Notes under the pieces: model-generated
The model's database searches: none
Told to the model about the DNA's origin: nothing
Seen by the model: the letters and a program-made list of their open reading frames with translations, nothing else
Position numbers and translations under genes: made by a program
Origin: Escherichia phage LF82-1
Direction: 5' to 3' (one strand)
Sequence record: PV648359
DNA length: 64,000 nucleotides
Part shown: positions 25,525 to 26,197 of the stretch, piece by piece
How positions within the stretch are numbered: position 1 is the first letter of the stretch
Layout of the letters: each line of letters begins with the position of its first letter

Positions 25525-25733
25525 AACCATGTCACCTTTAAACAGTATTCTTCTACATGCTGTTTACGACCTTTCTTATCAATAAAGGTATATTCAACGA
25601 ATGTTCCAATGTAGTCTTTATCGACATCATGTGGACTATTAATTGGACATTTAGTACGACAAATGCGTTCCCATTGACGAATAATTACTGCTTTATTTTT
25701 AGGATCAAACGGATGTGGGTAATGCACATTCAT
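25521..25733 (-). CDS. hypothetical protein
   Basis: Track ORF (TTG start) trimmed to MNVHYPHPF; ATGA overlap with macro-domain gene stop. Confidence 0.45.
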   Translation of the reverse strand: MNVHYPHPFDPKNKAVIIRQWERICRTKCPINSPHDVDKDYIGTFVEYTFIDKKGRKQHVEEYCLKVTWL

Positions 25734-26197
25734 AATAATGGTTCCCAATCAACAATCACAATTTCTAGTTTAGTGGAATATGTATCAAGAATTTCTTCAA
25801 TGATATCCCAGTTTCCACCACCTATACCTGCACCAATTCTTGGCATGTAAATCACAGGCTTTGCTATCTTATTCTTTCCGAATTTATTTAATTCTATTAT
25901 ACAATTCATTAAAGCAGAGTACTCAAAATTAGGTCCGGGCTCAAACTGTGTATAAAGATTAAAGCAATAAGCTTTATGGGTCTTAAAATATTTTTCATAA
26001 ACCGAATAGGAACCGAGTTTAGACTCGTCTCCGAATTCGGTTTGAAGTTTATCGGCTTCTAAAATTTTTGGATAAGCCTTTGCTAATTGTCCTGCTACAC
26101 CAGCGCCCATTGTATGAAAACAATTGCACCCATGAGCAATATTATTACCTTTAGAAAACAGGGCGACAATATCGCCCTTGATATAGTTTTTAATCAC
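25730..26197 (-). CDS. macro-domain protein (ADP-ribose binding/hydrolase fold); probable GTG start
   Basis: GDIVALFSKGNNIAHGCNC…GAGVAG and C-terminal GAGIGGGNW glycine-rich loops typical of macro domains; no in-frame ATG before the domain; GTG at 26197 preceded by AGAGGA. Confidence 0.7.
   Translation of the reverse strand: MIKNYIKGDIVALFSKGNNIAHGCNCFHTMGAGVAGQLAKAYPKILEADKLQTEFGDESKLGSYSVYEKYFKTHKAYCFNLYTQFEPGPNFEYSALMNCIIELNKFGKNKIAKPVIYMPRIGAGIGGGNWDIIEEILDTYSTKLEIVIVDWEPLL

Follow-up and report, generated by a model that had tools for sequence, protein, structure and literature searches.

The tk.4/adfM macrodomain gene of an RB69-like phage: a GTG start and a predicted glutamine-type active site

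A reading frame on the minus strand of Escherichia phage LF82-1 encodes glycine-rich loops of the macrodomain kind and offers no ATG ahead of them. Is this frame a macrodomain gene, where does its translation begin, and what would such a protein do for a phage? We addressed these questions in a 64-kb window, which is the whole stretch of DNA that was analysed. The initial annotation had pointed to the loops and to the absence of an in-frame ATG before the domain, and both are present on re-reading of the sequence. The frame ending at 25730 (-) has three possible openings, TTG 26227, TTG 26206 and GTG 26197, and its earliest in-frame ATG is the codon of Met30, within the macrodomain. The motifs seen in the translated frame are GDIVALFSKGNNIAHGCNC, GAGVAG (residues 31-36) and GAGIGGGNW (residues 122-130). 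The frame is a real gene, a chance ORF being excluded by the Pfam, PHROG and tblastn matches given below. Two plus-strand ORFs (25557..25850 and 26087..26215) were treated as spurious because they lie inside well-supported minus-strand genes. We also considered a second macrodomain gene in the window and rejected it; an HMM of the aligned family matched a single one of the 374 six-frame ORFs, namely the frame described here. The coordinates of this gene and of its surroundings are collected in Table 1.

Table 1. Features of the macrodomain locus and other elements of the window
Feature	Position	Strand	Remarks
Macrodomain CDS	25730..26197	-	155 codons and stop, GTG start; T4 tk.4/adfM ortholog
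GTG start codon	26195..26197	-	six relatives start with ATG at the homologous codon; GTG in Mosigvirus records
AGAGGA, Shine-Dalgarno-like	26208..26213	-	10 nt 5' of the GTG
H22-G-C-N25	26123..26134	-	invariant His and Asn; match His24 and Asn27 of SCO6735
Loop 1, G31-A-G-V-A-G36	26090..26107	-	conserved GxG loop; part of the predicted ADP-ribose-binding cleft
Q84 codon	25946..25948	-	invariant Gln; aligned with K84 of TARG1 and K80 of DarG, both catalytic
Loop 2, G122-A-G-I-G-G-G-N-W130	25808..25834	-	diphosphate-binding loop (predicted)
vs, upstream gene	26190..26537	-	valyl-tRNA synthetase modifier; ORF, annotated in LF82-2, Mizar and RB69
vs stop/tk.4 GTG overlap, GTGATTAA	26190..26197	-	8 nt
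tk.3, downstream gene	25521..25733	-	sequence, LF82-2 annotation, T4 order tk.3-tk.4-vs
Hairpin then U-tract, AGGGCGATATTGTCGCCCT GTTTTCT	26160..26178	-	8-bp, GC-rich; U-rich tail to about 26151
T4 vs.4/Acb2 (anti-CBASS protein 2) homolog	27899..28165	-	about 1.7 kb upstream of tk.4
tRNA-Arg (tct)	39903..39979	-	adjoins tRNA-Met
tRNA-Met (cat)	39983..40057	-	adjoins tRNA-Arg

The encoded protein, 155 residues long, is a stand-alone macrodomain and belongs to the ALC1/TARG1-like class. The Pfam Macro profile (PF01661) matched residues 32-146 over profile positions 2-117 of 118, at 28.1 bits (gathering cut-off 22; E = 2.2e-6). An AlphaFold2 model, built on 48 homologs with the T4 sequence left out of the alignment, reached a pLDDT of 94.5 and a pTM of 0.90 and contains six strands and six helices, in keeping with the alpha/beta macrodomain fold and its central mixed sheet. 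The top PDB matches of this model in Foldseek were TARG1, Poa1p, BT1257, the DarG macrodomains, a DarTG complex and SCO6735, each with a probability of 1.00; 86 PDB matches had E <= 0.001, and all 50 of the 50 listed were macrodomains or designed enzymes on a macrodomain scaffold. Sequence searches of the PDB returned the same set. Profile, fold model and Foldseek thus agree with the macrodomain assignment of the initial annotation. In NCBIfam and PADLOC only DarG was matched, and these matches were limited to the macrodomain part. The two glycine-rich loops are predicted to bind ADP-ribose and its diphosphate. Loop 1 aligns with MGAGIA of TARG1 and MGKGIA of DarG, and loop 2 aligns with GCGLDRLQW of TARG1, with TARG1 Asp125 opposite G126. 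Within these loops G33, A35, G122 and G124 are invariant among the 48 homologs, and conservation reaches at least 90% at I125, G128 and W130.

In the 1.2 kb surrounding the gene, identity is 100% with Escherichia phage LF82-2 and sibling isolates and 96-99% with other RB69-like phages, for example SHSML-52-1, Mizar and HX01, which places the window in an RB69-like T4-type phage. The protein shares 148 of 155 residues (95%) with RB69 Tk.4 (NP_861803) and, gap-free, 132 of 155 (85%) with T4 Tk.4 (NP_049723), and the identical CDS coordinates are annotated in LF82-2 and Mizar. The order tk ... tk.3-tk.4-vs-vs.1-regB is common to the window, LF82-2, Mizar, RB69 and T4, the early region of T4 reading tk-tk.1-tk.2-tk.3-tk.4-vs-vs.1-regB. 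Since this neighbouring gene order matches that of T4 and RB69, the ORF can be assigned as the syntenic ortholog of T4 tk.4, recently renamed adfM (anti-DarT factor, macrodomain). The initial annotation had left undecided whether T4 itself carries the gene; it does, as tk.4 (NP_049723), annotated 'phosphatase; contains A1pp phosphatase motif'. The protein matches PHROG 335 with E = 3.7e-66, and of the 50,697 phage records searched by tblastn, 2,792, belonging to many hosts, contain a homolog.

Two of these homologs deserve separate mention. In Edwardsiella phage PEi20 (NC_028683; locus L008, 401..856), tk.4 is annotated as the last 45 codons only (719..856). The tblastn match there extends over 98% of the protein, with an ATG standing at the usual start; the short tk.4 looks like an annotation gap, or else a disrupted gene. 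In Shigella phage Sf24 (NC_042078; locus L006, 401..880), tk.4 is about 59% identical overall to the window protein, while its first ~60 nt and the upstream junction are almost identical to T4. This T4-like 5' end, despite the low overall identity, suggests a recombination mosaic inside the gene.

The T4 ortholog has a published function. The DarTG2 defence system ADP-ribosylates thymidine in DNA and thereby blocks phage replication (10.1101/2025.11.20.689424). A preprint of November 2025 used HIDEN-SEQ to screen a library of T4 transposon mutants on a host with DarTG2 and obtained tk.4 as the single significant hit, and a clean tk.4 knockout made T4 sensitive to DarTG2; the gene was renamed adfM, and removal of ADP-ribose from DNA was proposed and termed 'likely' (10.1101/2025.11.20.689424). 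PhiKZ gp104 was also named AdfM (Cell Reports 2026); in vitro, this protein strips DarT2-made ADP-ribose from a TNTC oligonucleotide, and it rescues DarT2 toxicity (PMC13309987). T4 without the NADAR protein AdfN still resists DarTG2 (PMC11825919). The initial annotation had supposed that a phage macrodomain could reverse host ADP-ribosylation. In view of the requirement for T4 tk.4/adfM in DarTG2 resistance (10.1101/2025.11.20.689424), this idea was right and is already established for the ortholog. With considerable confidence, we therefore read the studied gene as the RB69-lineage tk.4/adfM, a GTG-started macrodomain resembling an orphan antitoxin, which would undo the thymidine ADP-ribosylation made by DarT2 through SCO6735-like chemistry. 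The gene, its GTG start and its probable role are thus already known.

We found that the GTG is the best candidate for the tk.4 start and is already on record, the same codon being annotated as the start in the Mosigvirus records of RB69 (NC_004928), LF82-2, Mizar and MM02. This backs the initial annotation, which had selected this GTG with AGAGGA ahead of it. An ATG occupies the homologous codon in T4, Yersinia phage fPS-65, Shigella phage Sf24, Enterobacter phage IME523, Edwardsiella phage PEi20 and Klebsiella phage 15882-6-3 (Jiaodavirus), and all six of these relatives have an in-frame stop immediately 5' of it. The N-terminus is alike across the aligned homologs shown (mostly 'MI..Y/I.KGD'), and β-strand 1 of the AlphaFold2 model comprises residues 2-8. 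The in-frame stops of the relatives, the shared annotation, the N-terminus and strand 1 together led us to reject the upstream TTG 26227 and TTG 26206 as starts. The extension that they would add is without conservation and lies inside the vs coding sequence, and TTG 26206 stands 1 nt after AGAGGA.

The AGAGGA, which also codes for Arg-Gly close to the C-terminus of Vs, may act as the ribosome-binding site. Its GAGG core is 11 nt from the GTG, which is rather distant, and T4 has GAGGA at the equivalent 11 nt. This spacing, together with the overlap of the vs stop with the tk.4 start, suggests that tk.4 may be translationally coupled to vs. At the other end of the gene, the tk.4 stop overlaps the ATG of tk.3 (ATGA). 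The vs/tk.4 junctions differ between lineages. In T4 the junction is ATGA, a 4-nt overlap, and vs ends in ...GLSTR, whereas the studied phage and RB69 have the 8-nt overlap and a vs ending in ...GLAASD. Between the lineages, vs has therefore changed frame with respect to tk.4, with the overlap retained.

The gene lies within a closely packed same-strand run (vs, tk.4, tk.3 ... tk), and the surrounding genes include those for thymidine kinase, rI, vs, vs.1, regB and an Acb2 homolog. This early region thus holds two counter-defence genes, the Acb2 homolog and the macrodomain gene. Codons 7-13 of tk.4 contain a hairpin with a folding energy of -13 kcal/mol (z = -3.7 relative to shuffled sequences). 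T4-type and RB69-type phages keep it, the orthologs of Kanagawavirus and Jiaodavirus lack it, and a terminator annotation exists for it in the Yersinia phage fPS-65 record alone. The hairpin might serve as an attenuator within the gene or affect the stability of the mRNA. Elsewhere in the 64-kb window, ARAGORN found two tRNA genes only.

We then compared the predicted active site with those of characterized macrodomains. Across the 48 homologs, with identities down to 37%, the invariant residues are H22, G23, N25, C26, G33, A35, D49 and G62 in the first half of the protein and N80, Y82, Q84, P119, I121, G122 and G124 in the remainder. In an HMM alignment, Q84 stands opposite the catalytic K84 of TARG1, and G126 stands opposite its D125. 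The alignment of one family member (P0116) equates Q84 with Gln85 of SCO6735 and, in the two DarG structures, with the 'PTK' lysine, and equates H22 and N25, residue for residue, with His24 and Asn27 of SCO6735. Residues 76-104 of the tk.4 protein contain no lysine. The equivalence of Q84 and the lysine was taken from three concordant HMM alignments (TARG1, DarG and SCO6735). When the family was aligned with PhiKZ gp104 by hhalign, Q84 fell one residue off the lysine, out of register, and the exact equivalence therefore rests on the HMM alignments and not on structure superposition. A term search of the T4 AdfM preprint and the PhiKZ AdfM paper returned no mention of the Lys-to-Gln difference. 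The glutamine-for-lysine active site is a small, testable addition to a known gene.

SCO6735 of Streptomyces coelicolor (PDB 5e3b) offers a biochemical precedent for such a site. This Streptomyces enzyme removes ADP-ribose linked to thymidine in DNA; its activity is abolished by Q85A and almost abolished by N27S, and a water-initiated cleavage with Gln85 positioning the distal ribose has been proposed (PMC9411070). The tk.4 protein resembles it in fold, in its stand-alone, toxin-less 'orphan' architecture and in the His24/Asn27/Gln85 set that replaces the lysine (and aspartate) of TARG1 and DarG. On the other hand, SCO6735 is distant from the window protein (E = 7e-5) and is cellular, not phage-encoded. 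Its DNA-positioning lysines K34 and K89 are absent from the tk.4 protein, where A32 and about G88 are found. Judged from the shared residues, the T4/RB69-type AdfM probably works like SCO6735 and not like DarG, and by analogy the studied protein would hydrolyse thymidine-linked ADP-ribose via Q84.

The substrate range of the relatives raises an alternative, namely that the main substrates are ADP-ribosylated proteins or RNA, carrying either the marks of Alt, ModA and ModB or those of host defences such as CmdT on mRNA; the anti-DarT2 activity would then be one role among several. Both SCO6735 and TARG1 take protein substrates too (PMC9411070), T4-type phages encode Alt, ModA and ModB (PMC9503650), and the 2,792 phage records with homologs, from many hosts, represent a distribution broader than one defence system might explain. 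However, SCO6735 is inactive on 2'-OH RNA and, according to the results of the same study, on 5'-phosphate-linked ADP-ribosylation (PMC11833690), and the T4 tk.4 phenotype was reported on DarTG2 only (10.1101/2025.11.20.689424). We regard proteins or RNA as very unlikely to be the main substrates.

Among the proteins compared, the T4 and RB69 Tk.4 proteins are the closest. They share with the studied protein the length of 155 residues, the position between vs and tk.3, the overlapping starts and stops, H22, N25 and Q84, and the glycine-rich loops. The T4 gene differs in its ATG start, whereas the studied phage and RB69 have GTG, and nothing suggests a functional difference from T4 or RB69 Tk.4. 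The top sequence and fold matches in the PDB are human TARG1/OARD1 (4j5r), Bacteroides BT1257 (2fg1/2afc) and yeast Poa1p (6lfq). TARG1 differs in having the dyad K84/D125 where the tk.4 protein has Q84/G126, whereas BT1257 also has a glutamine at the key position. By sequence, the closest solved relatives are BT1257, which is uncharacterised, and Poa1p, a small-molecule phosphatase.

The similarity to Poa1p brings up a second alternative, in which the protein is an ADP-ribose-1''-phosphate phosphatase whose small-molecule substrate arises as a by-product of RNA 2'-phosphotransferase reactions. In the PDB, Poa1p ranks among the best matches both by sequence (E = 6e-9) and by fold, the invariant H22 aligns with Poa1p His23, which was mutated by the depositors (entry 6lfs), and the phosphatase label appears in the T4, RB69 and PHROG annotations. 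This label, however, derives from the old domain name (A1pp) and not from an assay, and the sequence match to Poa1p is solid at residues 4-99 only, the second half being weak. An unsystematic look for a Tpt1/KptA-type source of the substrate found none. The T4 knockout phenotype, moreover, is DarTG2-specific, with tk.4 as the sole significant hit (10.1101/2025.11.20.689424). A Poa1p-like activity as the function of tk.4 therefore appears highly improbable.

The macrodomains of DarG (T. aquaticus 5m31 and M. tuberculosis 5m3i) share with the tk.4 protein the macrodomain class and the expected substrate, DarT2-made ADP-ribosyl-thymidine. The protein is nevertheless not a DarG. It scores 30.7 bits against the cut-off of 250 of the NCBIfam DarG model (NF048014) and matches positions 4-146 of 338 in that model and 4-145 of 329 in the PADLOC DarG model. 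Lys80 of the T. aquaticus protein is a glutamine in tk.4, the C-terminal DarT-binding domain is missing, and there is no adjacent darT gene, the neighbours being vs and tk.3. Score, architecture, catalytic residue and gene context thus rule out DarG, and the protein resembles an orphan DarG-like macrodomain. A further alternative is that its main action is to bind and inhibit DarT2 instead of repairing DNA. The catalytically dead mutants SCO6735 Q85A, DarG K80A and TARG1 K84A do inhibit DarT in vitro, SCO6735 most strongly (PMC9411070). Against this possibility, the tk.4 protein of 155 residues, whose match ends at position 146 of the 338 of the DarG model, is without the domain by which DarG binds DarT, the invariance of H22, N25 and Q84 argues for selection on catalysis, and PhiKZ AdfM is catalytic (PMC13309987). 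Inhibition by binding is, in our opinion, quite unlikely to be the main action.

PhiKZ gp104, from a chimallivirus, is likewise a stand-alone phage macrodomain with the same name and role, and hhalign relates it to the T4-type family with a probability of 95.5% at about 21% identity. The name AdfM was given independently to PhiKZ gp104 and to T4 Tk.4 (PMC13309987; bioRxiv 10.1101/2025.11.20.689424). PhiKZ gp104 keeps the DarG-type lysine ('FPTKDNW') and has DarG as its best PDB matches (E = 1e-24), whereas the T4-type family has a glutamine at the lysine site and BT1257 as its nearest match. It therefore seems that the shared name AdfM covers proteins from two separate branches of the class. 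A possible explanation, to which we give an even chance, is that the T4/RB69-type AdfM is glutamine-type (SCO6735/BT1257-like) and was recruited independently of the lysine-type, DarG-like PhiKZ AdfM, with phages converging twice.

For phage macrodomains in general, comparative genomics has led to the argument that most of them target low-molecular-weight ADP-ribose derivatives (PMC9503650). Accordingly, the tk.4 protein might break down or sequester a soluble ADP-ribose-derived immune signal, such as a cyclic ADP-ribose isomer of the Thoeris type; degradation of an ADP-ribose-derived signal had been the second suggestion of the initial annotation. This is extremely unlikely in our view, as SCO6735, DarG and TARG1, the nearest characterised relatives, take macromolecule-linked ADP-ribose as their substrate and the phenotype of the T4 ortholog is DarTG2-specific (10.1101/2025.11.20.689424). 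None of the four alternatives explains the DarTG2-specific phenotype of T4 better than de-ADP-ribosylation of DNA, and each may describe a minor or additional role.

According to the preferred reading, DNA de-ADP-ribosylation, the events during infection would be as follows. The DarTG2 system of the host would release DarT2, which adds ADP-ribose to thymidine of single-stranded phage DNA and makes replication stall. The tk.4/AdfM protein would then bind the ADP-ribose on the DNA and cleave the bond between ribose and thymine, restoring the DNA. Catalysis would proceed via the invariant Q84 with N25 and H22 instead of the lysine used by DarG.

At this locus, a counter-defence macrodomain and its non-ATG start were recognisable from raw sequence. 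The glutamine at the site of the catalytic lysine of DarG, TARG1 and PhiKZ AdfM predicts a water-initiated mechanism like that of SCO6735. If the T4/RB69-type and PhiKZ-type AdfM were indeed recruited independently, two ALC1-like branches with different chemistry would serve the same end in phages, the erasing of DarT2-made thymidine ADP-ribosylation, and the glutamine-type enzyme may accept more substrates, including protein-linked ADP-ribose, as SCO6735 does.
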